Positions 3,001 to 31,973 of a stretch of DNA of 64,000 nt are shown here, one piece after another. Below the pieces are notes generated by a model, which saw only the letters and a list, made by a program, of their open reading frames with translations, did no database searches and was not told where the DNA came from. The DNA is taken from positions 32,001 through 96,000 of IMG/VR virus record IMGVR_UViG_3300031746_000003, one strand, 5' to 3'. The stretch's first letter is position 1; each line of letters starts with the position of its first letter. Position numbers and translations under genes: made by a program. Source of the DNA: a virus.

Positions 3001-3153
3001 ATGGAGGCTGCCGCTACTGGAGCTCGCTCAGACATCCACGGTATTCACCCGATACCTGGGGCTGCCTACGGAGCGGAGTTTGGCTACACGGAAGCACAGA
3101 AGTTGGAACCTGGGCTACACCATCTGAAGGACGTACCGCGCTACGCGTACTGA
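1..3153 (+). CDS. rpoC: Phage multisubunit DNA-directed RNA polymerase, beta-prime-like subunit (5'-truncated by window edge)
   Basis: Catalytic NADFDGD at 937-957. Collinear RpoC motifs: KKGFFQQTLLSRKQDLSMRSVI, LMKRDPALHRHS, bridge helix QGARAG...PGFFSKKLV, DDCGT, Zn site CEQEKGLCQKC, trigger loop AQALGERSVQLTMKAFHTGG. The frame is open from position 1, so the true start is upstream. Confidence 0.95.
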   Translation, partial: TDYQSIVSGDKAISRSGAIVALGAIGADTGGAGIKRLLQQIDVKKDLKKAEAELGSISIPKGTTSSGITQKVDKLVKKVKYLRALDASGVHPADAYVLHNLPILPPALRPASVLPDGTISWADMNGLYSQFAQVNEQLKDPVISKNLSDTAKKQLRADLYDGMRAIVGQGSEESDQKGVLLQIHGSQPKKGFFQQTLLSRKQDLSMRSVIVPEPSLSIDQVGLPRSKATTLFRPFVVRKLVEIGAARSPIQAQELIAKKDPSVDRALDLVMEERPVLMKRDPALHRHSVMAFNAKAVPGRAIQIHPLVTTGYNADFDGDTMSVYVPISNEAVAEARKMMPSNHLFNEATGHVMFVPTLESALGMYKMSLVNKKVGNQSFAKTSDALKAVQSGTLHINDLATIAGTKTTAGRVLLADSLPKEMQKKILEDHSHILDEKNRSALFTHLAKNHSGNYGAVADKLKDLGTGMSMGVITLPHPDGSGPAVIKSAENYSKDRFHISVGAHSLSLKDIETDRAVRDPILKAAQKEVDAINSSTSIPTADKERRAILVWTTAADKLKKDHLASDFQSNLLTMQRAGVKPGWTQYKQLVLAPLLVADASGKIVPVPIRRSYSEGVDVGEYWTQMQGARAGNLKKVQEVREPGFFSKKLVNSTMSLVINVDDCGTHNGIALPATSNDVQDRTLVKDFSAKGMTIPAGTLLSPDMISQIRAADKDAHVVVRSPLKCEQEKGLCQKCTGLSATGVPYPIGTNIGLLSAQALGERSVQLTMKAFHTGGVVAGGAKTLSAFAKVDQLTKLPDVIPDSASLAMHSGKIDKIEKDQTGVKVWIGGHAHHVGKDRTGMPLHEILAHSQEMEGFIPWKAPKVGEHVEAGESLSDPNRTTVNPHQLYKATGSIERVQNFLTKELHGSYSSEGIRRQHVELLVKSMSNLTKVRDPGDSEGIIKGEFHPTSVIKALNAKLVKEGKQPVEHSPVLMGVDMMPLKVQEDWMAKMYHNRLRETVMEAAATGARSDIHGIHPIPGAAYGAEFGYTEAQKLEPGLHHLKDVPRYAY

Positions 3154-13682: not shown

Positions 13683-14156
13683 ATGACTAACAAGCTAGAC
13701 AGCTATATAGACAAGCGAGCGTCCTACAAGGTGACTCCTATGAGTCAGATCCTTAGGCAGGCTGCGCCACACATAGGTGCTCAAGTTGCTGTCGGTGTTG
13801 CAATGATGGGTGTAGGTGCGGCTGCTAGAGCATCCTATCAAGCAATAACGAAGCGCCGTGACTTCCGTACTATGCTGCAGTCGAACCCAGACTTGCAGGA
13901 TCACATGAGCGCAAACCCAGCGCAGTTCAATAGACACTACAACTCTCTTAGGTCTATGAACCCTGACTTTGCTACTGACCCCATAGTGGCAGGTAGCTAC
14001 ATGCGCCAAATGAGCCTTAACCCGCGCACTGCGGGTAACGTCATAGTTGAATCACTGCAGGCCGCTAAGGGGCAGCGTGGTCCTTCACACGTCTCCATGG
14101 GCTGGACTGAGGGTGAGAAGCCGTCTGGGAAGCTCGAAGGTAAGTTCGGCTTCTAA
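13683..14156 (+). CDS. Hypothetical virion protein
   Basis: 157 aa, N-terminal DKRAS then a hydrophobic Gly/Ala helix. Confidence 0.6.
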   Translation: MTNKLDSYIDKRASYKVTPMSQILRQAAPHIGAQVAVGVAMMGVGAAARASYQAITKRRDFRTMLQSNPDLQDHMSANPAQFNRHYNSLRSMNPDFATDPIVAGSYMRQMSLNPRTAGNVIVESLQAAKGQRGPSHVSMGWTEGEKPSGKLEGKFGF

Positions 14157-15892
14157 TGATCAAGCTCAGCCACTTCAGAGGAGAATCTGAAGCTGGGCCT
14201 ACGGTAATACCGCTCTTTGGTCCCGCTGATTCTACGTTTGAGAAGGTTGCTTCTTACACCCTTCTACCAGACGTAGTCCGTTACATTGGGGACCTAAGAC
14301 CCTCGCACAACTCTCAGTACGTTCTAGTGAACGCCATGGGAGCTACGGAGTGGTGGGGGTCTAACGTGAACGGGGATAGCTTCAAAGAAGCCTCCTTGAT
14401 TCATCGCCCTGAGAACTGGACTGGTAACCCCCTACTAGACAAGGTGGTAGCCAGGGACTGGGCCTATGGTTTCCCCACGTTCTACAACGCCCACGCCTTC
14501 GCTCACCATAAGAACAAGGATGCTGGCAGGGCTTACGGTAATGTAGAGCTAGCTGCCTGGAACCCGCACATGAAGCGGGTAGAGCTGGTCATCAGGGTAG
14601 ACAAGGACAAGTGTGAGCAGTTCGGTGGTACTGCTGTCTGGGATAGGCTTCGAGCAGGGCAGTACCCGGATGTCAGCATGGGATGTCGGGTCAAGTTTGA
14701 TACCTGTAGTATCTGTCTAGACCGCGAGCTCTACAACAAGGCCATTGCTAGCTTCAACCCGAAGACACAGAAGGCCCCTGACGACGCGGTTATAGCTATG
14801 CATGAGCGGCTGAAGGCTCATGACGGCGTCGGTATTCGTGGGGTATCGAAGACACGCGTTGACTACTGTCAGCACGCGTTAAAGCAGATGAACAAGATCT
14901 TGCCCGATGGGCGCAAGGTCTGGGTAGACAATGACTACCCCAGGTTCTTCGACATCAGCTTTGTATTCATCGGGGCAGACAAGACTGCCAAGGTGATGAT
15001 GTTCATCCATGGTGGGAAGATGAAGACATCTTCTCAGCTAGCTGATGAGCTAGGTTACATAGAGCTTGTCGGCGGTACTGAGAAGGTAGCTTCAGTAGAC
15101 GATGAGATCTTGAAGATGGCTCTGCTTGGTAAGAGCGCCAAGAGCAAAAAAGGAGAGATGAAGAAGGACATCGTACCTAGCCAGTTCGCTGGTAAGGCGG
15201 TGCCTATCATCTCCGGTAAAGAGAAGGACCTTCCTGACGAGGTTCTAGAAGCTATGGCTAAGGTGCCACTAGAGAGGTCCCTAGCTACAGCTTCTGGGTT
15301 AGGCATGGTTCTGAAGCCGAGAGAGTTTCAGAGGATCACTCTTATCAGTATTTCTCAGCGCCCCATGGCAGACCAGTTAGACAAGGACAACAAGGTCTTT
15401 AGCCACTGCGATGAAGAGCACCCAATAGGGATGTCCCCTAAGGACTTCATGCCAGCATTGGCTCGTTTACTGCTGCCATTGATGGCTTCTAGGTCTGCAC
15501 TTGGGGAACATGTAGAGAAGCGGGCGATGGAGGCTTTTAGTTCTCCAGCAGAAATTAAAGATCCCCCTTCTTCCCATAGTGCGGAGATACTACGTAAGAT
15601 TAGTTCTGCCTATAACGGTTACCGTAGAGAACTAATGGACTTGGCCGCACATTCTCAGGAGCTCATACCTAAAGCAGCAATGGTTGCTGAGGTAGAGTTG
15701 CACAAGCTGGCTAATGCTACGGTAGAAGATACCTTTACCCCACTGTCTATTGAGTATCTACAACAAGCCTTCTTGAATGAGAGGGGTGTTGGACATACAA
15801 CAGCAGAAGTGGTAAAACAATCAACAATCAGGCTAACGCCGGCGTGTAGAGAGGTTCCCCTCTCAGTGAGCACGTGGAACCATCGTACGTAA
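14156..15892 (+). CDS. Putative prohead (capsid maturation) serine protease
   Basis: His in FAHHKNKD, nucleophile-type DVSMGC followed by CSIC, and FFDISFVFIGADKTA (assemblin/HK97-protease-like pattern); lies upstream of scaffold and capsid genes. Confidence 0.7.
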   Translation: MIKLSHFRGESEAGPTVIPLFGPADSTFEKVASYTLLPDVVRYIGDLRPSHNSQYVLVNAMGATEWWGSNVNGDSFKEASLIHRPENWTGNPLLDKVVARDWAYGFPTFYNAHAFAHHKNKDAGRAYGNVELAAWNPHMKRVELVIRVDKDKCEQFGGTAVWDRLRAGQYPDVSMGCRVKFDTCSICLDRELYNKAIASFNPKTQKAPDDAVIAMHERLKAHDGVGIRGVSKTRVDYCQHALKQMNKILPDGRKVWVDNDYPRFFDISFVFIGADKTAKVMMFIHGGKMKTSSQLADELGYIELVGGTEKVASVDDEILKMALLGKSAKSKKGEMKKDIVPSQFAGKAVPIISGKEKDLPDEVLEAMAKVPLERSLATASGLGMVLKPREFQRITLISISQRPMADQLDKDNKVFSHCDEEHPIGMSPKDFMPALARLLLPLMASRSALGEHVEKRAMEAFSSPAEIKDPPSSHSAEILRKISSAYNGYRRELMDLAAHSQELIPKAAMVAEVELHKLANATVEDTFTPLSIEYLQQAFLNERGVGHTTAEVVKQSTIRLTPACREVPLSVSTWNHRT

Positions 15893-16579: not shown

Positions 16580-18076
16580 ATGTTCAAGCTATCGGACTCC
16601 AACTCGATAGCCCTCCCCGACCCAACTGCTGGGTCGGCGGAGGATGCACCAATAGCTCTTACGCACGTAGCAAACAAGCCAGCTCCAGGACTCAAGGGAC
16701 CAGCAGGTCTTTCCCCCCGAACTTCCTACTCCAGAGTGAACACAGGATCTCCGCCTATCCCCGACGCAGGGGCATCAGGGCAGAAGAGCATGTCACCAGG
16801 AGGCTTGGAGTTCTTACCCAAGACAGCCAGTGAGGATTTCATGCACACTATGATCGAGCGTCCTACTCTCCAAGACATGCTGAAGGCAGCCATGGAGGGC
16901 ACCATCAACAAGGTGGACATCACCAATGAGGCTGCCCGTCAGCTGTACAACCAGGGTGATGACGAAGCCCCAGTAGCTGAGAAGATGGCTTCCACTACGC
17001 ACTTTTCTACTGACTACATCGAGAAGCTTTCCGATGCTATCGGCTACATTGCTGAGAAGCTAGCAGAGGACAGCAAGAAGGAAGCTGCTACTGGCCATCA
17101 GCAGAAGCCAGGTGAAGGTCCGGGTGCTCTACATGTCATGCAGGCTACGTCCAGCATGAGGAACGTGGATGCTGGTGAGCAGGGTCAAGCTAAGACTCAG
17201 CTGCCGGTTAACCCCGGTACAAAGAAGCTACCTGGGCAGAAGCAAGATCCAGGTACAGCGATGGAGACCAACGTGCACATGCAACATGGCGAGCAGCCTG
17301 TTGACCCGTGGCACAATGAGAAGGCCAAGCTATCAGAAGCTGCTGACCAATCGCTGGTAGAGCGTCTGAAGAAGCTTGCTGCTGGACTGCCTGGCGCTCC
17401 TACATTTGCTGGACGTGCCGGTGGTGTGAGCTCGGCTCTAGTTAAGCCCACAGGAGCTCAGTGGGCTCCAGGTCATAGCGCAGCTGGCAGAGATCCCTTC
17501 CATGGAATGGCTCTACCGAAGTCGCCGATACCTGCCCCACCAGCACATGTTTACCAGGCTGCTGGTATGGCTCAGCCAAAGGTGGCGGCAGCTCCTGTCG
17601 CTCTTCTTCGCAAGCTAGCTGGTGAGGATGAAGCTCCGGCTACCATCAGTGCTGGTCCAGCAGTACCTCCTGACGCCAGCTCTGCTGAGCAGGGTGTCCC
17701 TGTGCAGCCTTCTGACGTCAATCGTCAGACCAATATGGTTGACTCTAATATGTCGGCCATTAACTACACCAAGGGGCAGGCCAAGGCAGATCCCAAGACT
17801 GACGTGAACAAGGTCCTCGTCGAGAAGGCTCTTTCGTCGGCTACTGACAAGACACTTGAACGTGCCTTCGCCCATACGGGACAGGCTGGTGTGAAGATCT
17901 CTGCCGCTGATACTTCTGATGCGTCTATTAAGGTAGCTGCAGCTCGTGCACTACTCTCTAAGATCGCATCGGAAGTAGACGACAAGCGTAAGAACAATAA
18001 AGAGAAGGACTCCGCCTTTGGAGGTCCTACACCACAGGCAGCTACTGGTGTTAATGCTGCCTCTATGGGTTCCTAG
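16580..18076 (+). CDS. Putative scaffold/internal head protein, low complexity
   Basis: Pro/Ala/Gln-rich 498 aa with more than 10 K-x-A/S sites. Confidence 0.55.
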   Translation: MFKLSDSNSIALPDPTAGSAEDAPIALTHVANKPAPGLKGPAGLSPRTSYSRVNTGSPPIPDAGASGQKSMSPGGLEFLPKTASEDFMHTMIERPTLQDMLKAAMEGTINKVDITNEAARQLYNQGDDEAPVAEKMASTTHFSTDYIEKLSDAIGYIAEKLAEDSKKEAATGHQQKPGEGPGALHVMQATSSMRNVDAGEQGQAKTQLPVNPGTKKLPGQKQDPGTAMETNVHMQHGEQPVDPWHNEKAKLSEAADQSLVERLKKLAAGLPGAPTFAGRAGGVSSALVKPTGAQWAPGHSAAGRDPFHGMALPKSPIPAPPAHVYQAAGMAQPKVAAAPVALLRKLAGEDEAPATISAGPAVPPDASSAEQGVPVQPSDVNRQTNMVDSNMSAINYTKGQAKADPKTDVNKVLVEKALSSATDKTLERAFAHTGQAGVKISAADTSDASIKVAAARALLSKIASEVDDKRKNNKEKDSAFGGPTPQAATGVNAASMGS

Positions 18077-19056: not shown

Positions 19057-20181
19057 ATGAGCGTCCCGGCACGTATGCTGAATGAGCTCTTTACCCAGAA
19101 GCTTTCATCGGCTGAGGGTAAGGAAAAGATCGCGGAGTATGGTGGCTCGTACATTCGAGACCGTCTTCGTGAGGTTAGCTTTGCGCGGAAGATCCTTCCG
19201 CCTGAGCAGGTCACACGGGCGGATTGCCAGCGGTCGGTTAATCACGACACGCTAGTGAAGATCGTCGATGTTGAGCCGAAGAGCCGAGCGATGTCGATCA
19301 CGTTCCGTGGACAGCCCACGGCACGGTTCATTCGCGGGGCGAAGGCCGAGATCGCGTTCTACACGATCAGCTCTGAGATCTTCCAGAAGACAGAGCAGGA
19401 GCTTCTCGCCTACGAGATGCCCATCACCAAGATTATCGAGGAGAACTCGGTAAAGGATATCCAGGAGATTGAGGACCGTGAGTTCCTCATCCACATTGAG
19501 GCGGCCTGCCAGGCGCTACAGACAGAGGCCAACGGTGGCGTGTCTACGGCGCTCAACTGGACGAACATCAATGCGGCTTCCGTGGTCGAGTTCTCGATCA
19601 TCAAGGGTGAGCTAGCTCGTACGGCTGGCGTCGATGACGCCACTGTCCGTCCGATCCAGCGCCCGGATGTGGTCAACCTGTTCAAGCTTCTTGACGGGAA
19701 CCGTCTCCGTGCCGAGCGCATCCTCATGACGGAGGTCGACTGGGACGACATCCTTCAGTGGACCCTTGAGGACTTCGGTGATCGCATGCAGTCCGAGACT
19801 GCAGTTGACGGCTACAAGTACAACACGCTGCTCGGTCGTCCGTACATCCGTACGATCAAGACGGACATCCTCCGTCGCGGCAACGTGTACGTGTTCACGC
19901 GTCCGGAGTTCTTCGGTAAGTTCTACGTGCTTAACAACACGAAGTTCTACATCGACAAGATCGCGAACACGATCACCTTCCAGGCCTGGGAAGACATTGG
20001 TATGGGCATCATCAACATCGCGTCTGTTCGTAAGCTAGAGCTCTACTCTGGTGACGCGAACCCGACGACGAATGCTGACTCGCTGCTCGCCAACTTCATC
20101 CCAACGGATGAGGACCAGCTCGGCGCGGTGAACAACCGTGTTGACCAGGGCCTCAAGTTCCCGCAGGTCAGCCAGTTCTGA
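19057..20181 (+). CDS. Major capsid protein (HK97 fold, inferred)
   Basis: 374 aa; RDRLREVSFARKILPP and KDIQEIEDREF spine-helix-like segments; strongest codon bias in the window; AGGAG SD; followed by a hairpin. Confidence 0.8.
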   Translation: MSVPARMLNELFTQKLSSAEGKEKIAEYGGSYIRDRLREVSFARKILPPEQVTRADCQRSVNHDTLVKIVDVEPKSRAMSITFRGQPTARFIRGAKAEIAFYTISSEIFQKTEQELLAYEMPITKIIEENSVKDIQEIEDREFLIHIEAACQALQTEANGGVSTALNWTNINAASVVEFSIIKGELARTAGVDDATVRPIQRPDVVNLFKLLDGNRLRAERILMTEVDWDDILQWTLEDFGDRMQSETAVDGYKYNTLLGRPYIRTIKTDILRRGNVYVFTRPEFFGKFYVLNNTKFYIDKIANTITFQAWEDIGMGIINIASVRKLELYSGDANPTTNADSLLANFIPTDEDQLGAVNNRVDQGLKFPQVSQF

Positions 20182-22505: not shown

Positions 22506-24956
22506 ATGAACGCTTTTGACCGGCTCAGTTACTCTATCCCACTGGCTGATGCTTCTTCTTTTTTCATCAAGTTGAAGACAGCAGCAGTTACAGACCCGCC
22601 TGACGAGACTGGTATGCTTGAGGGCGAGTTCGAAGCCCCAGTAGAAGAAGTCATAGGGGTCATGAAAGAGCTCGTTGAGAACGAGTTCAAGACCATGGTG
22701 GCTTACCACGTCTATGCTAATAGCCTTCGTGATTTGGCTCACAGCAGTATTGCTGAAGAGTTTGAGGAGCACGCTGAGAAGGAACTAGAGCATGCGAATT
22801 ATCTTCTTCGCCGCATGTCTGTACTTGGTGGGCCGATTCAGATCGGGGAGATAGAGCCACCTCCTGCCTCCTCTGAGGCTACTGACATCATCCAGACAAT
22901 GATTCGGTACGAGCAAGAGGGTATTGCCAAGTGGAAGATTCTCCACTCCATGATGGGGGAGAACCCATCTAAGTACGACATCGAGCAGTTCCTCACCAAT
23001 GAGCTTCATCATCTTGATGAGCTCTGGCAGCTACTGCCGCAAGAGGCTCACCAGCCGGTACTACATGGTAAGGCCCTCCCAGGTATGCCAGGTGACCCAA
23101 TGGCTCAGCCACTGGCAGCACCAGTTGAGCCAGCTAGCACTGAAAGTATTCCTGCGCCTACTGATCAGGCGGGTAAGACAGCTGCTAGTATAGATTGGGC
23201 AGATAAGAAGTTAGTAGCTGCTGCTGACAAGGTGTTTAAGCGTACTGGTAAGAAACCCTATACGTTAAACATGGCGGAAGACGCCTCCAAATTAACAGGC
23301 TCGTTGAAAGCGCAGCATACTCAGGCGGGTAAGACTCATCGTACGTCATCTCCACATAATCGTTCGGCTATTCGTGCACAAGTAAAAGAGATACGTGAGA
23401 AGAGCGCAGCTGCTGTCAAGATGCGCTTTAGTTTAGCGCTCCATAAGCTGGCTGATGGTGAGATTGGTGGAGCAGCTACTGAGGGTGCGCAGATGTCTGC
23501 GCCCACACCGGCTAAGACGATGCCCACAAACTACCTGGCAGCAGAGCAGATAGCTCAGCAGGCCCAGAATATGAACGAGTCTACGTTCTACCGCCAGCAA
23601 CTAGAGACGCAGAAGCTGCAGGCTCAGGCAGCTCAGCAGCAGGCAGAGCAGCAAGCTCAGCAGCTATCTGAGATGCAGAATCAGGTAGCTATCAGTGGTA
23701 CTGAGGCTCAGGCGGCATCACAGCAGGCGTTGCAGTCTCAGCAGGAGGCTACTCAGTCAGCTCAGATGTCAGCCAACATGCGGCTAGGGCTAGAGCGTAT
23801 GAGGACCCAGCTTATGGATCTGGCTGCTCAAGATCCGGCTACTCCTCAGACCCCAGTACAGGGACAATCCATGCAGCAACAGCAGGTTGACCAGGCTGCT
23901 GCAGCTGGTGACCCTAATGCTGTCGCTCAGCAACAGGCTAACCAGGGCATGGCTCTAGACCCAGGCACAGCTCAGTCCGGTGTTGATAGCGGCATCGGTG
24001 GTGAGAGCTCTGGTGGTACTGGTGGTTCGCAAGGACCAGCTGTAGCTGCTGAAGGCGCACAAGGAGCTCCAGGTGCAGCTCCACCAGCTGGTGCAGCTCC
24101 ACAGAATGCCAACGCTACCGGCACTCCGCCTACGGCAGCTACGACAACGCCAGCTACTAACCTCAGCGTCAAAGTAGGCTCTGCTCTTACAGAAGCAGCC
24201 AGAGACAAGATCAAGACTAAGAACTTTGCGCTCTCTGCAAAGCAGTCAGATACCGGTGCACCTAAGTACCCGATTGAAGATCGCCGTCACGCAGCCAATG
24301 CCCTTAGCCGTGTAGGTCAATTCGGTTCTCCTAAGGAGAAGGCTGAGGTTTACAAGGACGTGGCCAGGAAGTACCCAGACCTTGCTCGGCACAGTGATAT
24401 ACCAGCAGTGAAGGCAAAGGCTAAGCACGCTAGTAAGTACCACGCTGGTTACCCCAAGTTTCTTAAGAGGTATAGTGAGGGGCTAACCGGTGAGAAGGTA
24501 CGCGATCTAAAGGGTACACGGGACACGGTTAAGAACAAGCTAGAGAAATCCCACGTACTAAAGACTAGAGGTGGTACTGCAGCAGCTGTAGTTGCGCCTA
24601 TTGTTGGGAAGAAGCTACACGATAAGCGTAAGGCGAATAACGACAAGCTCGCTGGTGTAGCGGGTGCTATCGGTGGAGCAGCTCTTGGTGGTATGGGTGG
24701 CTTACTAGAAGCCCACACGGCTAACCCAGAAGCCATGAACCAACGCGTTCACGAGCTAGAGGCCAGGGACAGAGGCACCTTTGGTGATGCTCTCTCTATC
24801 GCTAAGGCGAAGATGAGAGCTTCCATGGGTGAGCTTTCTCACGCGCATCCAGGGGCAGCTATGCTTACAGGTGCAGCTATCGGTGGGGTAACTGGGCATC
24901 ACATAGAGTCTCAGCTACCTGGGATTATGCAGAACATAAAAGAACTGAGGAGCTGA
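22506..24956 (+). CDS. Multidomain virion protein: bacterioferritin-like di-iron domain, Gln-rich coiled coil, DUF6582-like domain, glycine zippers
   Basis: E60, Y67, E93xxH96, E136, E166xxH169 match ferroxidase-centre spacing. LTEAARDKI...NFAL...KYPIEDRRHAANALSRV resembles DUF6582. Modules are separated by K-x-A/G sites. Confidence 0.75.
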   Translation: MNAFDRLSYSIPLADASSFFIKLKTAAVTDPPDETGMLEGEFEAPVEEVIGVMKELVENEFKTMVAYHVYANSLRDLAHSSIAEEFEEHAEKELEHANYLLRRMSVLGGPIQIGEIEPPPASSEATDIIQTMIRYEQEGIAKWKILHSMMGENPSKYDIEQFLTNELHHLDELWQLLPQEAHQPVLHGKALPGMPGDPMAQPLAAPVEPASTESIPAPTDQAGKTAASIDWADKKLVAAADKVFKRTGKKPYTLNMAEDASKLTGSLKAQHTQAGKTHRTSSPHNRSAIRAQVKEIREKSAAAVKMRFSLALHKLADGEIGGAATEGAQMSAPTPAKTMPTNYLAAEQIAQQAQNMNESTFYRQQLETQKLQAQAAQQQAEQQAQQLSEMQNQVAISGTEAQAASQQALQSQQEATQSAQMSANMRLGLERMRTQLMDLAAQDPATPQTPVQGQSMQQQQVDQAAAAGDPNAVAQQQANQGMALDPGTAQSGVDSGIGGESSGGTGGSQGPAVAAEGAQGAPGAAPPAGAAPQNANATGTPPTAATTTPATNLSVKVGSALTEAARDKIKTKNFALSAKQSDTGAPKYPIEDRRHAANALSRVGQFGSPKEKAEVYKDVARKYPDLARHSDIPAVKAKAKHASKYHAGYPKFLKRYSEGLTGEKVRDLKGTRDTVKNKLEKSHVLKTRGGTAAAVVAPIVGKKLHDKRKANNDKLAGVAGAIGGAALGGMGGLLEAHTANPEAMNQRVHELEARDRGTFGDALSIAKAKMRASMGELSHAHPGAAMLTGAAIGGVTGHHIESQLPGIMQNIKELRS

Positions 24957-24958
24957 TC

Positions 24959-26632
24959 ATGCTCGATACATTTTTGAAGGTTGCCTACGACCACGAGAAG
25001 ACCGCTGCTGGTAAGGAGTACACGGTTGACCTTCTAAAGCAGCTCCCTAATGACTACCTACAGGCGCTTGCGTCTGGCGAGGTAAAGCTAGCGCATCTTA
25101 GCTGCGGTTCTGGTGGGGACTACGAGTGGCTAGAGAAGTTCAAGGGTTCTCCTCTATTCGACCAGGCGCTGCAGCTAGAGCAGAAGACCTTGGAAATGGA
25201 CCTACAGAAGCAGCAGACGAACAACGAGCGTCGTCAGATGTGGGACCAGCAGGACCAGGAGATGGACCAGCTGCGCATCCAGAAGAAGCTGCTAGATCTA
25301 CAGCTCGTTCAACAAGAGGGTCAGACTGCCGCCGGTGGTATGCCCGCAGCTGAGGGTGCACCTCCTGAACTCCCAGTAGAAGCTGCTCCACCCGAGGCAG
25401 CTCCTCCTGGTCCACCAGCAGCTGCCGCTAACCCTGTTTCTGTGAAGGTGGGCTCCATAAGTAAGACAGCTCTAACTGCTGCTGATGTGTATCGTCGGGT
25501 GAATAATGCAGCCATTAACGCGAGTCCAAAGCGTCTTAATAACTTCGGCAAGAGGATGGATATCGCACACGATATGGCTGTAGGAGATAACGTAGCTAAA
25601 GGGCTAGCGCACCCATCGTCAGCAGGCTCTGCTTCTAAGTATTGGGATGCTGGGACCGCTGCTAACTATGCGGAAAGAGCAAAGAGGCAGGGTTTACCGG
25701 TAAAACGGATGGAGAAGGGTGGTGCCGCTAGTTCTAAGGACAAAGTTACGGCGAAAGACCGTATGCACGCTGGCGCTCGGGGGGCAGCAGTTGGCGGTAC
25801 TCTTGGGGCTGTTGCACATGAGGTTAACCGACGTATTACGGGGACTAAATCTCATAAGGGGTTAGTCCCAAACGTTGCTGAAAAAGCCATTGTCATTGGG
25901 GGTTTAGCTGCTGCCCTAGCTAAGTCACGTAAGGAAAAGACCTCCGCTGAGCACGAGAAGCACCGCGCAACTAAGCAGGTAGCTTCTTTAGCTGCTCTCC
26001 CTGCCCTAGGAGCAGCGACTGGCGCAGGTGGCAGGGCACTTCTTTCCTTAGGAGTCAAGGATACCGAGCCGTTAACTGCCAAGGCGGTCAAAGCACTTGG
26101 TGAGGCTGTGCCTTCTGCTAAGGAGCAGCTCAAGAACCTTCTGAAGAACCAGAAGGCGAAACCAGGAGACCTGGCGCACAAGGTCATTCGTGGGGCTGGT
26201 GTTGGTGGTGCTATTGGTCTAGGCGCTGCTGGGGCTATAGGTGCTACGCAGCTGATCCACCATGGAGACACCGAGGGGCATATCACAGGTGCTATGAAGC
26301 GCCGCCGAGAAGCAGCTGAGAGTTTTGCTAAATCTCATAGTGTTAAGGAGGGCAGCAAGGTTGCTAGTAGCCCCATGCTAAACGCCATGCGGAGTCTAAG
26401 AAGTGCGTGGGGTATCGAGAAGGACAGTGCAGCAGCCCCAGCTGTAGACCCGCACCTTGGTATGAAGCTAAAGGACGCACCACAAGCCGCTTTAAATGCA
26501 GTGCAGTACGGCACACATGCGGCTGGTGACTGGGTAGGTAAGAATCCAAAGGCTGCTCTTGGTGGTGCAGCTCTACTTGCTGGTGGCGCGTTGCTGGGAA
26601 GAGCTAGTAAAGACGACCGTCCAAGGTACTGA
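24959..26632 (+). CDS. K-x-A-tagged virion protein with coiled coil and glycine zippers
   Basis: KVAY, EKTA, KLAH, KVGS, KTAL, EKTS, KVAS; GxxxG repeats. Confidence 0.6.
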   Translation: MLDTFLKVAYDHEKTAAGKEYTVDLLKQLPNDYLQALASGEVKLAHLSCGSGGDYEWLEKFKGSPLFDQALQLEQKTLEMDLQKQQTNNERRQMWDQQDQEMDQLRIQKKLLDLQLVQQEGQTAAGGMPAAEGAPPELPVEAAPPEAAPPGPPAAAANPVSVKVGSISKTALTAADVYRRVNNAAINASPKRLNNFGKRMDIAHDMAVGDNVAKGLAHPSSAGSASKYWDAGTAANYAERAKRQGLPVKRMEKGGAASSKDKVTAKDRMHAGARGAAVGGTLGAVAHEVNRRITGTKSHKGLVPNVAEKAIVIGGLAAALAKSRKEKTSAEHEKHRATKQVASLAALPALGAATGAGGRALLSLGVKDTEPLTAKAVKALGEAVPSAKEQLKNLLKNQKAKPGDLAHKVIRGAGVGGAIGLGAAGAIGATQLIHHGDTEGHITGAMKRRREAAESFAKSHSVKEGSKVASSPMLNAMRSLRSAWGIEKDSAAAPAVDPHLGMKLKDAPQAALNAVQYGTHAAGDWVGKNPKAALGGAALLAGGALLGRASKDDRPRY

Positions 26633-27537
26633 TGCCCGTCCCGCTGGTAGTTAAAGAGTTAAAGATCCGCTCGTTAGACGCAGACTTCAACGAAATATCG
26701 TGGAAGCTGGAGTCTACGAGTGAGGACGTGCTCGACTACACCTTTCAGGTTACTCGTTCAGAGGGTGCCGAGGGGCCCTACGACGCAATATCTCCGTTGA
26801 TGGACGACACTTATATCTTCATCGACAATATGGTGAAGATCGGGCATCGCTACCGACATAACTTCTACAAGCTGGTCATCACCCAGAAGTCTTCTGGAGA
26901 CACTTCTGAGTTTGGTCCTGAGGAGAAAGAGGCGGAGCCAGATCTAATAGCTCTAGAACTGCGGAAGCATATGAACCTGCTTTTCCGTGAGTTCGCTGGG
27001 CGTAGGTGCTGGGTGCTGCCTGTTAGAACCTTTGGTCAACGCTGCGGGTGTTGGAATGCCACACTGCAAAAGCGTACGCGTTCCGGTTGCCGTACTTGTT
27101 ACGACACAGGTTTTATTCGTGGGTACATGCACCCAATAGAGACCTGGTTACAGATAGATCCTAGTCCCGCCAACGAGACGACTACTAATGTAGGCCCTAT
27201 CCATCAGAACAACACTACTGCTCGGCTAGGCTACTACCCTTCGTTAAAGCCTCGTGATCTTATCATTGAGCCAGAGAACCGCAGGTGGCGAGTTACTCAG
27301 GTAGGTGCTACTGAGCAGTTACGTTCTCCGGTACACCAAGAGATACAGATTCACGAGGTACCCCAGACCGACATAGAGTTTTTGATACCTCTGCAGTTAG
27401 ATCAGGCTCTACGGGATGTGTTCTTCTCTCCTGCTAGGAACTTCACGAATCCGTACACGTTAGAGAACTTCGAGAACGAAGAGATCCCTAAGATCTACAA
27501 TCTGTACTACTCTAGCTACCCACCAGTGAAGTCATGA
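26632..27537 (+). CDS. Putative neck/head-closure protein with FN3-like N-terminus and Zn site
   Basis: ISWK...YTFQVTRSE...FID...FYKL (FN3-like); RCGC...CRTCYDTGFIRGY. Confidence 0.55.
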   Translation: MPVPLVVKELKIRSLDADFNEISWKLESTSEDVLDYTFQVTRSEGAEGPYDAISPLMDDTYIFIDNMVKIGHRYRHNFYKLVITQKSSGDTSEFGPEEKEAEPDLIALELRKHMNLLFREFAGRRCWVLPVRTFGQRCGCWNATLQKRTRSGCRTCYDTGFIRGYMHPIETWLQIDPSPANETTTNVGPIHQNNTTARLGYYPSLKPRDLIIEPENRRWRVTQVGATEQLRSPVHQEIQIHEVPQTDIEFLIPLQLDQALRDVFFSPARNFTNPYTLENFENEEIPKIYNLYYSSYPPVKS

Positions 27538-27869
27538 TATCCGTACGTCACTACCTACCAGAGTACGCTGACAGCTTTGCCAAGTTAGCTGGGGTATTGC
27601 CAGCTACCGTAGCTAAGAAGCCTGACAGCCAGCTTAAGCGAACGCTTCAGACAGCGGCTAAGGGAGCTCTTGGTATTGGGCTAGGTACTGCCGCAGGTTT
27701 TGGTATTGGGGCAGCTACTGATGCTATAGCTCGCGGGCTTAGTGGCAAGCCTTCTGGCATACCTGAGTTCAAGTATATCGTTCCTGTGTTAACTGCCGGG
27801 ATGCTGGTGTCTAAGGCTTTGTGGCAAGCTAAGGAACAGGAGGCTCTACGTGGCAGGAAAGATCGTTGA
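27534..27869 (+). CDS. Small membrane/glycine-zipper virion protein
   Basis: FAKLAG followed by GALGIGLGTAAGFGIG and a second hydrophobic helix. Confidence 0.55.
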   Translation: MISVRHYLPEYADSFAKLAGVLPATVAKKPDSQLKRTLQTAAKGALGIGLGTAAGFGIGAATDAIARGLSGKPSGIPEFKYIVPVLTAGMLVSKALWQAKEQEALRGRKDR

Positions 27870-28817: not shown

Positions 28818-31800
28818 ATGGCTGCTGAACTCCCCCGCCCAGGGGTCGAAGTAATCCAGGTTTTCCGGACCACCTCCCCAACGGTGATCACCCCCACGCT
28901 CACGCCTTGCGTGGTCGGCGTAGCCAAGCAGATTGTTGATGTTCTGGTGCCAACGGGCTCTGGTAGCAACACGCTGAACACGGCGGCGTTGATTAACATG
29001 CCTGGCTTCTTCATCTCGAAGGATGCCGTTGGTGACCCGCCTATCTACAGCATTCTTGACGGCGATGCGTTTAGCATTTCCGTAAATGGTGGTGCAGATA
29101 TCACACTAGAGTTCTCTGACCTAGCGGCAGCTGGTCTTTCCCCAGCAGATATCGTTGCTCAGGTAAACGAGCAGCTGCTGGCGCAGAACGTCTCTAGCAT
29201 TCGCGCTACCCAGGTTGGAGATCTAACTTGGCGCCTAGCCACAGTTGGTCTTGGGGAGTTCCAGTACATCACCATACTAGACGCTGACGCTTCGGTGCTC
29301 AGCGCCTTTGGTATCGGCATAGGCAAGACCTACGCCGGTCTGGACAACTACAACCAGCTCATTGCTGAGATTCCTCAGGCAAACTTTCCAGACCCACGTA
29401 GCAATCTTTCGCAGTTGGCTATCGAGAACGATTCTATCCGAGTCTTTCTAGCGACCGGTAACGGAGCCAACCTACTAGAGACCAGCCGCACGTCAGCGTT
29501 CTGCCGTAATGGAGCTACCAGCAAGGTAGTTGTTACAGGTATTACGGACATTGCACTATTAGCCTTGTACGGCGGTGCGGGTACATTGGACACCACCGTA
29601 CTCAACATGTCCATAAATGGTGCGACGTCACCAACAGCACTGACCTTTGTAGGCCTTACAAACGCCTTAAATGAAGCAGCTATGTTGGCGGCTATCACGG
29701 CTACTTTCCCTGGTGTAGTAGCCAGCTTTGTAGCCGTGGGCCCAGTGCACAACCTTGTACTCACCACGACCATCAGTGGAGCACCTGCTCAGATTCGCAT
29801 CTTTGCTGGTACTGCCAACGCGATTCTGGGTCTCTCAGTGTCTGACACAGTGGGTGGAACTATCTCTGCTGTCGATGACGGCAATGGAGACACAGTTACT
29901 CCATTGATAGAGTTCGGTGGGTACACCCCACAGGCCTTTACGGTTACGCCTACCCAAGCGGTACTAACTGCGTCTTCTGCACTCACACTACCACCAGCAG
30001 CGGGCTCGACACTTATACTGAATGGTGGAGACCAGACACAGACGATCACCTTTGATGGTACTGAGGTACTAGCTGCTGCGGTACATGCGGCTATCAATGC
30101 CGTAGTTGGACCTGCCGCTGGTGGTCACATCACTGCAAGTGGGGCTACTCTAGTTCTTACCCACGACCGTTTTGGGACGGACAGTGTGATCAACATTGTC
30201 GGTGGTACAGCGCTAGCGACTAGCCTAGACCCCGGTGTAACACCGACTATTGTAGCTGGGGCTACGAAGCGCGGAATTGTGTCTAAGCCGGAGGCGGGTG
30301 ACTCGCTCTACTTAGATGGTTCGTTCTACGCGACCATTCTTCAGGTAGCACCTGGCCTTGTTACCAGCCGCGTGAAGATCGACCGACAGGTGCCAATTAA
30401 GGCTGACCTAGCGCAGACCTTCTACATCGTTGCCAACAACCTGCCTGGTATAGCAAGCAGGCCGCTACCGGAGCTAACCATCACCCTAAATGGGGACGTG
30501 GTTATCAAGCAGGAGCTCCTCAGGGAGATCACGGGCACCTCTGTAGGTACTCTACGAGCTCCTATCTACCTGGCGTACAAGGCCGTTCGTAAGGACGTTA
30601 CCTCGGCAGCTACCTCCCCTGGTCTCCTACGGTACGACAACACGACCACGCTTACTCAGGACCTCAGCCCGATTAACGTGTCCAACCCACTTGCCCTTGG
30701 GTTGTTCTTCGCTCTTCTCAATGCCCCAGGTGCTCAGGTTACTGGCATCGGTGTTGACGAGGTTAGCGCAGACTCCCCGTACGGCACAGTCGAAGGGTTC
30801 ACGCGAGCGGCTGAGTACCTTGAGAACTTCGAGGTCTACGCAATCGCTCCGCTGACCCACGACGATACGGTTGGCCAGGTGTACAACACCCACATCACGG
30901 TGATGAGCTCCCCCGCTAACAAGGGTGAGCGCATTGCTATCTGGAACCCGGCTACGCCAACCAAGAAGCTAGACACACTAGTTGCGTCTGGCTCTGATGG
31001 TAATAGCTCAGGTCCCAGCGGTACTCTGTTCGATACTGGTGTAGCTAACCTGTCTGCCCTTCTGCTGAACGCAGGGGTAAACCCGGTTGGTACGATACCG
31101 GTATCGAAGGGTGTGTTCCTGGACATCGCCAGTGACAGCAAGCACTACTCGGTGCAGTCTATCTCGGGCGCTACCGTCACCATCAGGACAGTGTTTGGTC
31201 CTGGTGAGAACACGGATGCTTTCTACTCCACTACTGACCTGAACACTCCCCCTCTGCCAGCCTCGCTTATAGAGGAAGCGTTTAGTGTTAAGGTCCGTGG
31301 AGCAGCACTCGCTACGGTATCAGGTATGCCTGACCGTAACGGTATTGCGGCCACCGTAACCGGCATTGGCCAGTCCTTCCTGAACCGCAGGTTCTGGATG
31401 ACCTTCCCTGACAAAGCGGGTGCTGTCATAGAGGGCACTGACCAGATCGTGGAGGGCTTCTACATGAACGCGGCTATCGCGGGCATGATTGGCCAGCAGC
31501 CTCCTCAGCAGTCCTTCACGAACTTCCCGATGACTGGGTTCACCCGAGTCATTGGATCGAGTGAAGTCTACTCGGAGCGTCAGCTGAACCAGATGGCTGC
31601 AGGTGGCGCGTACATCATCGTGCAGGACTTCATCGGAGCTCCGCTCATCGCCCGGATGGCTCTCACCACGGACCTCACGTCTGTGGAGACCCGTACGGAC
31701 TCCATCACGAAGGTTGTCGACTTCACCGCGAAGTTCCTGCGCAAGTCGCTCAAGAACTTCATTGGTAGGTTCAACATCACCCAGGGTCTACTGGACAGCC

Positions 31801-31973
31801 TTGGTACTGTTATCCAGGGTTCTCTAGGGTTCCTCATCGAGCACGGCATCCTCATCGGTGGGCAGCTGAACAACATTGTTCAGGACGAGACTGCTCCTGA
31901 CACGGTGCTTATCGATATCACCCTGGATGTTCCATATCCCTGCAACTACATCCGTCTGACCCTATTCATCTGA
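28818..31973 (+). CDS. Contractile tail sheath protein
   Basis: N-terminal RPGVEVIQ...PCVVG; C-terminal SITKVVDF...IDITLDVPYPCNYIRLTL; 1051 aa with insertion domains. Confidence 0.9.
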   Translation: MAAELPRPGVEVIQVFRTTSPTVITPTLTPCVVGVAKQIVDVLVPTGSGSNTLNTAALINMPGFFISKDAVGDPPIYSILDGDAFSISVNGGADITLEFSDLAAAGLSPADIVAQVNEQLLAQNVSSIRATQVGDLTWRLATVGLGEFQYITILDADASVLSAFGIGIGKTYAGLDNYNQLIAEIPQANFPDPRSNLSQLAIENDSIRVFLATGNGANLLETSRTSAFCRNGATSKVVVTGITDIALLALYGGAGTLDTTVLNMSINGATSPTALTFVGLTNALNEAAMLAAITATFPGVVASFVAVGPVHNLVLTTTISGAPAQIRIFAGTANAILGLSVSDTVGGTISAVDDGNGDTVTPLIEFGGYTPQAFTVTPTQAVLTASSALTLPPAAGSTLILNGGDQTQTITFDGTEVLAAAVHAAINAVVGPAAGGHITASGATLVLTHDRFGTDSVINIVGGTALATSLDPGVTPTIVAGATKRGIVSKPEAGDSLYLDGSFYATILQVAPGLVTSRVKIDRQVPIKADLAQTFYIVANNLPGIASRPLPELTITLNGDVVIKQELLREITGTSVGTLRAPIYLAYKAVRKDVTSAATSPGLLRYDNTTTLTQDLSPINVSNPLALGLFFALLNAPGAQVTGIGVDEVSADSPYGTVEGFTRAAEYLENFEVYAIAPLTHDDTVGQVYNTHITVMSSPANKGERIAIWNPATPTKKLDTLVASGSDGNSSGPSGTLFDTGVANLSALLLNAGVNPVGTIPVSKGVFLDIASDSKHYSVQSISGATVTIRTVFGPGENTDAFYSTTDLNTPPLPASLIEEAFSVKVRGAALATVSGMPDRNGIAATVTGIGQSFLNRRFWMTFPDKAGAVIEGTDQIVEGFYMNAAIAGMIGQQPPQQSFTNFPMTGFTRVIGSSEVYSERQLNQMAAGGAYIIVQDFIGAPLIARMALTTDLTSVETRTDSITKVVDFTAKFLRKSLKNFIGRFNITQGLLDSLGTVIQGSLGFLIEHGILIGGQLNNIVQDETAPDTVLIDITLDVPYPCNYIRLTLFI

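Follow-up and report, generated by a model that had tools for sequence, protein, structure and literature searches.

Why should a gene lying between the capsid and sheath genes of a virus begin with a domain built like an iron-oxidizing ferritin? The question is raised by an 816 aa ORF at 22506..24956 on the plus strand of a 64,000 nt stretch of viral DNA (the window). The ORF is present as described in an earlier note on this DNA, which read it as a tagged virion polyprotein carrying a bacterioferritin-like di-iron domain. That note named a ferritin profile search as a check on the reading and a structure prediction, set beforehand, as the test able to refute it.

Fold and metal site of the N-terminal domain

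The profile search matches PF00210 over aa 54–171 (E 3.9e-13; 50 bits against a cut-off of 24.5), and the predicted fold is ferritin-like, a four-helix bundle at aa 45–190 (22638..23075, plus strand). The AF2 model of the ferritin part has a pLDDT of 88.7 and a pTM of 0.74, with pLDDT values of 94–99 across aa 45–190. VIA-align places it best on the Bacillus di-iron protein 2qqy_A (Z 19.2, rmsd 1.7 Å, 134 residues aligned) and then on the mini-bacterioferritin 9qq4_A (Z 19.0, rmsd 1.7 Å, 134 residues aligned), 8w1d_A (Z 17.8) and 2vzb_A (Z 17.4). Foldseek against the PDB returned 248 matches at E≤0.001; the matches listed are ferritin-like entries, with 2qqy, the DPSL structures 2vzb/8w1e and the mini-bacterioferritin 9qq4 in the lead. 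With the full-length model, VIA-align matches are to the ferritin domain only.

All seven ferroxidase-type residues previously pointed out (E60, Y67, E93xxH96, E136 and E166xxH169) are found in the sequence. Their bacterioferritin-like spacing is borne out by phmmer, which aligns them with E18, Y25, E51, H54, E94, E127 and H130 of 4am2, the closest PDB entry by sequence (E 2.5e-5; structure-based identity ~20 %). The replacement of the haem-ligand Met by Leu is likewise apparent, L94 falling on Met52 of 4am2; over 117 family rows this column holds Leu in 55, Thr in 25 and Arg in 11. There are no Cys residues in aa 45–190. An NCBIfam scan at E≤0.1 returned no bacterioferritin model, only two archaeal DPS models far under their cut-offs. 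The residue set suggests a ferroxidase-type di-iron centre inside the subunit, without a haem site, which may bind metal and be active. A homodimer prediction for aa 1–190 gave a median of 0.38 against a mark of 0.42, which speaks neither for nor against oligomerization.

Coiled coil and C-terminal parts

The Gln-rich coiled coil noted earlier downstream of the ferritin domain is modelled as two long helices, aa 341–396 and 402–441, within aa 341–441 (23526..23828, plus strand), and is a probable coiled coil. AF2 pLDDT values are about 80–87 for aa 341–390 and 62–74 for aa 391–440. The corresponding block, YLxxEQ followed by a Q-rich stretch, is conserved in the family consensus, with E347 at ≥90 %. 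Further on lies a small helical domain at aa 561–645 (24186..24440, plus strand; AF2 helices 563–645), with pLDDT values of 80–89 for aa 591–620. Its first part, aa 561–610, matches phrog_16160 (E 2.7e-5), a family of unknown function; this is the sole match for this part. The DUF6582-like domain that had been suggested was not recovered, Pfam listing none at E≤5 for aa 516–816.

The C-terminal helical domain, aa 702–816 (24609..24953, plus strand; AF2 helices 702–815), contains two Gly/Ala-rich helices. These had been described as glycine zippers: the sequence does show helices rich in G/A, while the Pfam glycine-zipper models score E 0.07 and 0.39, under their cut-offs. The pLDDT of this domain is 67–92 from aa 711 and 53 at aa 701–710. 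Its family consensus retains G724, A766, P782 and G797 at ≥90 %. A protein atlas search with aa 557–816 gave no usable match.

Family and conservation

The protein belongs to a family of which 118 homologues of 448–1428 aa were collected, 114 of them with a precomputed PF00210 match. Among 1.84 billion sequences, representatives number 442, 256 and 156 at E≤1e-3, 1e-10 and 1e-30, respectively, and at least 156 clusters (50 % identity) have the N-terminal domain in common. Nearly all of the top 150 matches are long and carry the domain at their N-terminal end. A Pfam scan of 60 members found PF00210 in 59; it found no recurrent second domain, only single matches to DUF5661, LPP and Gly-zipper_Omp, and no catalytic domain in the C-terminal part. 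In essentially all members the ferritin domain is fused to a stretch of ~630 residues that is partly coiled coil and partly Gly-rich.

The complete E-Y-E-H-E-E-H set, including the ferroxidase-type Tyr, is kept across deep branches (93 of 117 rows). E136 is present in all 117 rows and H169 in 115; together with E93 and Y67 they are among the most conserved columns. One co-varying change, E60K with H96A/G/D/S and E166D, occurs in 20 rows, which form one side of a single branch in a quick tree (SH-aLRT 96). Within this subclade, comprising these 20 plus 4 further members, ligands of one metal position have been lost; thus, the family can do without full di-iron chemistry.

Searches of the cultured phages in INPHARED gave no match with the whole protein or with 12 kb of DNA, and none with aa 1–215 at E≤1. 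The related contigs reach about 196 kb. The carriers are best explained as a clade of large, contractile-tailed, uncultured phages.

Genomic context

The genes considered here all lie on the plus strand, in a phage locus that also contains a terminase gene. A 578 aa candidate prohead protease with a C-terminal extension (14156..15892) is followed by a 498 aa scaffold-like protein (16580..18076), upstream of the capsid gene and without a family match in Pfam or PHROG. The major capsid protein (19057..20181; phrog_2522, E 5.8e-10) precedes the ferritin gene, and a 557 aa downstream partner (24959..26632) and the tail sheath (28818..31973; phrog_279, E 2.5e-5) come after it. The earlier placement of the ferritin gene in the middle of the neck genes holds as far as the position between capsid and sheath is concerned; the neck identity is by position alone, the small flanking ORFs having no family match.

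The protease identity of the 578 aa protein is weak, resting on phrog_18299 'head maturation protease' at E 0.0015, and this weakness counts against the main reading given below. Two of its 10 homologues match the same family, the protein has conserved His and Ser residues, and neither the 578 aa protein (as a single sequence or a 10-row profile) nor a 412 aa protein has a significant match in the PDB.

The slot after the major capsid gene is occupied by the ferritin gene in 21 of 21 loci (19 from IMG/VR and 2 from MAGs). The bins of the two MAG loci are titled Deltaproteobacteria and Myxococcales, a weak pointer to the host. The order is capsid ... p166-(p155)-ferritin gene, with the 557 aa gene, the 301 aa genes and the sheath next wherever the contig continues. 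The 557 aa gene is syntenic in 12 of the 19 IMG/VR loci and in L023. Its product was considered as a paralogue of the 816 aa protein, which comparison ruled out. The nearest cultured relatives of the capsid protein are in Salmonella phage Arash (31.6 % identity) and three Vibrio phages (26 %); as annotated, the Arash region has its genes in another order and lacks a ferritin gene.

The leader and the K-[TVI]-[AG]-[AS] motif

The 816 aa protein starts with a leader, aa 1–27 (22506..22586, plus strand), which ends in the K24-T-A-A (aa 24–27) already remarked upon ahead of the ferritin domain. Over 117 rows its conserved columns are F4, I11-P12-L13, E15-A16, F19-F20 and L23-K24. The leader is modelled as a helix at aa 13–25 with a pLDDT of about 80–87, and so could be integral to the fold and not a removable tag. 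It is similar to the leader of the 578 aa candidate protease: in a six-frame search of the window, a leader-like pattern of I/V-P-L ... F ... K-T/V-A-A/S was found in two open frames only, those of the 578 aa and ferritin proteins.

The K-x-A/G sites described earlier are real, and the strict form, K-[TVI]-[AG]-[AS], occurs at K24, K224 and K556. K224-T-A-A (23175..23186, plus strand) is a putative processing site in the disordered linker past the ferritin domain, and K556-V-G-S (24171..24182, plus strand), which closes a 120-residue disordered stretch, is a putative processing or capsid-anchoring site. Six head-module proteins together contain the strict motif 15 times where 1.5 would be expected, a count attained in 0 of 2000 shuffles, under a definition made partly after inspecting these same proteins. 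In three proteins outside the motif definition there are 5 occurrences where 0.38 would be expected (again 0 of 2000 shuffles). The other 46 ORFs show no enrichment, with 6 occurrences against 4.8 expected (182 of 500 shuffles), and there are none in the capsid protein, the sheath or both 301 aa proteins. Four sites are in the scaffold-like protein, and the 557 aa partner has a short leader ending in K14-T-A-A, two further sites and several Gly/Ala-rich segments. In the 578 aa protein K30 is invariant and K310 is kept at ≥90 % (10 rows), the two sites bracketing the protease-like domain.

The strict motif is found again in homologues of the 578, 214 and 498 aa proteins in four relatives. The ferritin protein of relatives, however, often lacks it (0–1 strict matches in L002, L004 and L006), and only a looser K-x-[AGS]-x is conserved there. 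In the 816 aa protein the sites fall where the leader ends and within linkers of low pLDDT, with the lysines conserved amid variable sequence. The K224 column holds K in 56 of 92 rows in an otherwise variable linker (pLDDT <50 for aa 208–232); the K556 column holds K in 84 of 92 rows and at ≥90 % in the 60 full-length rows (pLDDT <50 for aa 444–565). In many members the best-conserved site has the form [V/I]-S-[V/I]-K-[V/T/K]-G-S, and the string V-S-V-K-V-G-S is present in the neighbouring 557 aa protein as well. Residues flanking the motif core are not conserved.

A possible role in the phage head, and its alternatives

Synteny, leader likeness and motif enrichment lend indirect, sequence-based support to an association of the ferritin protein with the head. 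The main reading, to which about half of the confidence is given, is that the 816 aa product is a protease-processed, head-internal polyprotein whose di-iron N-terminal domain has a Dps-like role. The leader would probably draw the precursor into the assembling prohead, where a maturation protease would probably cut at K-[TVI]-[AG]-[AS]-type sites: past the leader, at K224, and at K556 before the C-terminal region. Cleavage would free a ~22 kDa bacterioferritin/DPSL-like bundle with a di-iron centre and no haem. Two more fragments would come with it: the Gln-rich coiled coil and a C-terminal part whose Gly/Ala-rich helices may be membrane-active. Most likely the di-iron domain is Dps-like, oxidizing Fe(II) with O2 or H2O2. 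Such oxidation may limit Fenton damage to the packed genome or, should the protein be ejected, to the DNA entering the host. Several observations weigh against this reading: no cultured relative in INPHARED carries the gene, the motif was defined in part on these proteins, the capsid protein has no strict site and the ferritin protein of relatives often has none, one subclade has lost ligands, the leader is modelled with fairly high confidence, and published phage ferritin-like genes are usually given other roles. A bolder version of the main reading, a tentative and somewhat doubtful proposal, is that the whole clade routinely loads a working ferroxidase into an HK97-fold capsid via a cleavable N-terminal leader, where it guards the genome against damage by iron and peroxide or from which it is injected; this may be the kind of arrangement that gave rise to ferritin-loaded encapsulins.

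The ferritin fold might alternatively be a mere helical building block, an oligomerization or plug domain in an ejection or inner-core complex, in a packaged or ejected protein in which any bound metal is structural and the coiled coil and C-terminal helices act on the host envelope. The coiled coil and C-terminal block are indeed conserved family-wide (E347, G724, A766, P782 and G797), no catalytic domain was detected in the C-terminal part of the 60 members scanned, and the 20-member subclade swapped three ligands together and kept the protein. This is nonetheless judged unlikely: the ligands and the ferroxidase-type Tyr retained in most rows and across deep branches are hard to square with a purely structural bundle, as is the standing of E136, E93, H169 and Y67 among the most conserved columns. 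The protein could also act outside the virion, as an infection-phase ferritin- or Dps-like helper in iron handling or oxidative stress that is encoded in a late operon. Phage ferritin-like genes are usually read in this way in the accessible portions of the published accounts (PMC8008677; 10.64898/2026.09.14.751636; 10.64898/2026.05.02.722434), the first two of which take them for metabolic or DNA-protection genes and not for head cargo. A helper of that kind sits poorly with a structural-module slot held in every one of the 21 loci, with the fusion to ~630 residues and with a leader and motif common only to head-assembly proteins. The distance of the domain from its best PDB match also argues against a recent host origin, and the infection-phase role appears quite improbable.

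Two further possibilities keep the protein in the particle and change its place or its fate. The K-x-G/A-S motifs may be capsid-interior anchors, comparable with encapsulin targeting peptides, that fasten an uncut protein to the inside of the HK97-fold shell. The best-conserved site bears a loose likeness to LTVGSL and LGIGSL, two encapsulin targeting motifs given in the accessible part of 10.1101/2025.09.13.676036, and its occurrence in the 557 aa neighbour fits the same idea. The likeness is short, however, and the residues flanking the core are not conserved; moreover, several motifs occur per protein, and the K30/K310 bracketing of the protease-like domain is typical of maturation cleavage. 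Tethering is accordingly given a slender chance. The slimmest is left for a fibre on the outside of the neck or collar, with the coiled coil projecting from the head–tail junction and displaying an iron-binding domain outside. The gene position between capsid and sheath and the 100-residue coiled coil would suit a fibre, and there are proposals of tail proteins that carry iron in other phages, among them Vi01-like gp217 in the accessible text of PMC10892097. Against this, the leader and motif are those of the protease- and scaffold-like proteins and are missing from the sheath and 301 aa proteins; nor does a chain with long disordered linkers and C-terminal helices rich in Gly/Ala resemble known fibres.

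Should the processed, head-internal polyprotein be packaged and active, it would represent a new route by which virions guard their DNA or deliver an iron enzyme to the host, and would connect phage capsids with iron-storing encapsulins in concrete functional terms. Clade-wide loading, if true, would be a viral counterpart to iron-handling encapsulin compartments. The motif K-[TVI]-[AG]-[AS] also predicts, in a form that can be tested, the specificity of the maturation protease in these uncultured phages. Neither ferritin-like proteins nor protease-processed head proteins are new in themselves; a search of the main texts of the open-access literature turned up no account of a head-module polyprotein that has a conserved ferritin-type di-iron domain as its first module.

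Comparison with known systems

Bacterioferritin, a shell of 24 subunits, has the four-helix bundle and the intra-subunit di-iron centre that are predicted for the phage domain, whose ligands correspond one-to-one with those of 4am2. It differs in binding haem between two subunits through Met52, replaced by Leu in the phage protein, where the domain forms the N-terminus of an 816 aa chain. DPS-like proteins (DPSL or thioferritin; 2vzb, 2clb, 8w1d/e, 7stw) are structurally close, with a Bfr-type site inside the subunit. DPSL proteins form 12-mers and have a conserved cysteine pair near the site; this pair is missing from the phage domain, which is joined to a long C-terminal region. The mini-bacterioferritin 9qq4 resembles the phage domain as a streamlined four-helix bundle with a di-iron ferroxidase centre. 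Mini-bacterioferritins are defined, as far as the available text of PMC13168243 goes, by assembly into a 12-mer shell and by a haem-binding Met that is strictly conserved; the phage domain lacks the haem Met and has ~21 % sequence identity.

Other phages also encode ferritin folds, including phage G gp346, Vi01-like gp217 and the Dps-like proteins of Lactobacillus phages and 'Gratiaviridae', and the accessible texts of PMC12484599 and PMC10892097 place two such proteins in particle proteomes. Unlike the 816 aa protein, these are mostly small and stand-alone, with another architecture and gene position. None gives a sequence match to aa 1–215 in INPHARED at E≤1, and in BFVD they are only distant structural matches (E 1e-4 to 1e-2, TM about 0.5). 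BFVD does contain long proteins from uncultured phages, listed as 'Dps' and 'Prohead protease', that include a ferritin-like part. The 'MV-2 ferritin' of a myxophage preprint, from a 62 kb temperate phage, was judged unrelated to the clade.

The processed head proteins of T4 and phiKZ/SPN3US are alike in being encoded in the head module, in having a propeptide-like leader and in sharing a motif with the scaffold or protease that is absent from the tail. The cleavage motifs of T4 and phiKZ are Glu-based, in contrast to the putative K-[TVI]-[AG]-[AS] sites of the present clade. To our knowledge, no T4 internal protein and no phiKZ/SPN3US inner-body or ejection protein has a ferritin domain.

Encapsulin cargo carries a C-terminal targeting peptide, and its gene is adjacent to that of the shell, without phage packaging or tail genes. 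The phage locus differs in having a terminase, capsid, sheath and candidate protease, and its putative tag is N-terminal and probably removed. As an analogy only, the ferritin-like cargo proteins of encapsulins (Flp, EncFtn and double-ferritin-fold ferroxidases) and the phage polyprotein may share one concept, that of a short peptide directing a ferritin-like domain into an HK97-fold shell.

Ferritin domain and predicted fold

The ORF at 22506..24956 (+) in the window's ORF list encodes 816 aa, of which residues 54–171 match Pfam Ferritin (PF00210; E 3.9e-13, 50 bits against a cut-off of 24.5). The Rubrerythrin Pfam score falls slightly under its own cut-off, and the NCBIfam matches consist of two DPS models, both far under cut-off. 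Searched with phmmer against PDB sequences, the protein matched 43 ferritin-family chains at E≤0.01, headed by Blastochloris viridis bacterioferritin 4am2 (E 2.5e-5). The di-iron ligands named in an earlier sequence-only note (E60, Y67, E93, H96, E136, E166 and H169) are present at those positions, and in the phmmer alignment they correspond to 4am2 chain positions 18, 25, 51, 54, 94, 127 and 130. The haem ligand Met52 of 4am2 aligns with Leu94. In mini-bacterioferritins, by contrast, the haem-binding Met is described as strictly conserved (PMC13168243). The missing haem Met excludes the protein from the bacterioferritins and mini-bacterioferritins, strictly defined.

An AlphaFold2 model of aa 1–215, built from 92 aligned sequences, has a mean pLDDT of 88.7 and a pTM of 0.74, with ferritin-domain helices at 46–71, 76–108, 125–148 and 155–176 and a short helix at 179–187. 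Foldseek returned 248 PDB matches at E≤0.001, the matches listed being ferritin-like entries. VIA-align, run against 48,161 chains, ranked highest 2qqy_A, a Bacillus anthracis di-iron-carboxylate protein (Z 19.2, rmsd 1.7 Å, 134 aligned), the mini-bacterioferritin 9qq4_A (Z 19.0, rmsd 1.7 Å, 134 aligned) and the DPS-like protein 8w1d_A (Z 17.8, rmsd 2.2 Å, 138 aligned), followed by Dps, Bfr and ferritins. Since the model and its structural matches are ferritin-like, the fold that the note had anticipated is borne out by prediction.

Family and ligand conservation

The protein has a genuine ferritin domain, and the domain is conserved. A word-indexed search found 118 homologous proteins of 448–1428 aa on contigs of up to about 199 kb; 114 carry a precomputed PF00210 match, in 117 the region matching the query is at the very N-terminal end, and in most the identity is limited to about 20–30 % of the query length. 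An exhaustive search of 1.84 billion representatives yielded 442, 256 and 156 proteins at E≤1e-3, 1e-10 and 1e-30, respectively, and nearly all of the best 150 are long proteins with the domain N-terminal.

Ligand columns were counted in 117 rows, comprising the query and 116 homologues (P0001, the cluster representative of the window itself, and the weak match P0118 were left out). E136 is present in 117/117, H169 in 115, Y67 in 114 and E93 in 113; position 60 is E in 93 and K in 21, position 96 is H in 93, A in 12 and G in 7, and position 166 is E in 93 and D in 20. As whole patterns, E-Y-E-H-E-E-H occurs in 93/117 rows and K-Y-E-[A/G/D/S]-E-D-H in 20/117, with 4/117 irregular. In a quick maximum-likelihood tree the 20 variant rows form one side of a single branch (SH-aLRT 96), and the full site is kept across the tree outside it; the variant pattern therefore looks like one event that later diversified. 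Three ligands are altered jointly in these 20 members (E60K, H96A/G/D/S and E166D), and a lysine may there substitute for one metal ion, so that the site would be mononuclear. Variant members include homologues P0030, P0041, P0048, P0051–P0056, P0064, P0069, P0075–P0085 and P0093. Other invariant or near-invariant residues (P32-D33, G36, E39-G40, F42, R103, G109, P119, N153-P154, D171 and W174-Q175) set the family apart, on sequence grounds, as a distinct subfamily.

Remainder of the 816-aa protein

The full-length model (mean pLDDT 65.7) places a leader helix at aa 13–25 before the ferritin bundle, and after it a disordered linker (aa 194–232), helices of modest confidence (aa 231–317) and two long Gln-rich helices (aa 341–441; pLDDT 80–87 for aa 341–390, 62–74 for aa 391–440). 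A disordered stretch of ~120 residues (aa 444–565) leads to a small helical domain (pLDDT 80–89 for aa 591–620), and another disordered stretch to a C-terminal helical domain with two Gly/Ala-rich helices (aa 702–815; pLDDT 67–92 from aa 711). The family consensus has three conserved blocks, of which one is the ferritin domain, one is Gln-rich and one is C-terminal. Two labels previously proposed here did not hold: Pfam gives no DUF6582 match for aa 516–816 at E≤5, and its glycine-zipper models reach E 0.07 and 0.39. The sole match of aa 516–816 is phrog_16160, of unknown function.

Genomic setting

The ferritin gene belongs to the core of the structural module in an uncultured phage clade. 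The source record is 120 kb, judged 64 % complete, and several related contigs span 177–196 kb. Gene order runs from the large terminase (phrog_675, E 2.6e-57) through the 578-aa protein, scaffold-like proteins, the major capsid protein (phrog_2522) and four small ORFs to the ferritin gene, then through the 557-aa protein and 301-, 111- and 301-aa proteins to the tail sheath (phrog_279). Among related IMG/VR loci, the capsid and 166-aa genes lie upstream of the ferritin gene in 19/19; the sheath is seen downstream in 9/19, the remaining loci stopping at contig edges. Two more contigs, from MAGs, share this order. The bins that contain the two contigs of this phage type L022 and L023 are MAGs with the titles Deltaproteobacteria and Myxococcales, a weak hint of host. 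Among GenBank phages in INPHARED neither the whole protein nor the domain found a match, the domain even at E≤1, and the closest cultured capsid proteins are 26–32 % identical to that of the window.

Just 5′ of the packaging and head genes, positions 109–3153 (+) encode a protein resembling the beta-prime subunit of multisubunit RNA polymerases, with Rpb1 domains 1, 2 and 5 matched at E values as low as 4e-32. In Arash, a distant cultured relative, an RNA polymerase subunit is likewise encoded 5′ of the head genes, ~9 kb ahead of the capsid gene. Elsewhere, a 1179-aa ORF (52982–56521, +) is Gly-rich (16 %) and Ala-rich, matches nothing in Pfam and lies in a region of unusually high GC skew (0.28 for 54001–56000).

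Shared lysine motif and leader

Six proteins totalling 2784 aa contain between them 15 copies of the strict motif K-[TVI]-[AG]-[AS]; they are the ferritin and 557-aa proteins and, encoded 5′ of the capsid gene, the 578-, 214-, 498- and 121-aa proteins. Residue shuffling of these proteins gave an expectation of 1.5, and 15 was reached in 0/2000 shuffles; three proteins not used to define the motif hold 5 sites against 0.38 expected (0/2000). The remaining 46 window ORFs hold 6 sites against 4.8 expected (182/500 shuffles), and none lies in the capsid, the sheath or either 301-aa protein. The polymerase-like protein likewise lacks a site. In four relatives, each homologue of the 578-, 214- and 498-aa proteins has 1–5 sites.

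Three sites fall in the ferritin protein: K24, at the leader end, and K224 and K556, in low-confidence linkers. Lys is kept at these columns in 69, 56 and 84 of 92 rows, respectively, amid variable surroundings, and K556 is at least 90 % conserved in 60 full-length rows; in relatives the motif is often loosened to K-x-[A/G/S]-x. A leader-like pattern ([I/V/L]-P-[L/I/F], an aromatic, then K/R-x-A/G-x), searched in six frames of the whole window, matched only two open frames, at the start of the 578-aa and ferritin proteins, and it matches the same two proteins in relatives.

The 578-aa protein (14156–15892, +), which may contain a zinc-ribbon insert, is a prohead-protease candidate; its only supporting match is a weak one to the head-maturation-protease family phrog_18299 (E 0.0015), which 2/10 homologues also match. 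In a 10-row alignment K30 is invariant and K310 at least 90 % conserved, the pair flanking a conserved N-terminal domain. Invariant positions of that domain comprise a His, S-M-G and D-x-C-S-I-C/C/H, and it also has an F-F-D-I-S-x-V...G-A-D-K-T-A-K strand. One homologue (L011:1492–3654) carries an inserted domain of ~130 residues exactly at the K310-type site, with strong PHROG matches to minor head protein, DarB-like antirestriction and virion structural protein (E 1e-17 to 7e-27). Gly/Ala-rich hydrophobic helices also occur in the 557-aa (24959–26632, +), 111-aa (27534–27869, +) and 157-aa (13683–14156, +) proteins; the 557- and 157-aa proteins have short leaders ending in K-x-A-A/S inside the first 15 residues. 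The ferritin protein and these three may constitute a set of ejection proteins.

Interpretation

Phage ferritin-like proteins are already on record. Phage G gp346 was found by particle proteomics (PMC12484599), gp217 in Vi01-like virion data is 'ferritin' by Phyre2 assignment (PMC10892097), and Dps-like genes are described in Lactobacillus phages and 'Gratiaviridae' (PMC8008677). Ferritin genes of a myxophage and a Nitrosospira phage were taken as metabolic helpers (10.64898/2026.09.14.751636; 10.64898/2026.05.02.722434). BFVD includes long uncultured-phage proteins labelled 'Dps' or 'Prohead protease' in which one portion is ferritin-like. In the open-access literature, supplements aside, searches turned up neither this fused family nor any processed head cargo with a ferritin domain.

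The motif and leader are as expected for a maturation-protease recognition site. There are rival readings: the motifs could be anchoring peptides rather than cleavage sites, the ferritin fold could have a structural, non-catalytic use, and the protein itself could be an external fibre or a cytoplasmic helper acting outside the virion. The reading preferred here is cargo of the head, plausible and testable and as yet unproven.

The motif and leader also fit the N-terminal propeptide of proteins entering the prohead, and because of both fits the 816-aa product is read as a putative head-internal polyprotein. The first piece released would be a Bfr/DPSL-like di-iron domain, whose simplest function would be Dps-like protection of packed or incoming DNA. 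Its Gly/Ala-rich C-terminal helices, and those of the 557- and 111-aa neighbours, which are similar, point to a putative set of membrane-active ejection proteins. In T4 and phiKZ-like phages, internal and ejection proteins enter the prohead bearing an N-terminal propeptide, and the 816-aa product would resemble them.
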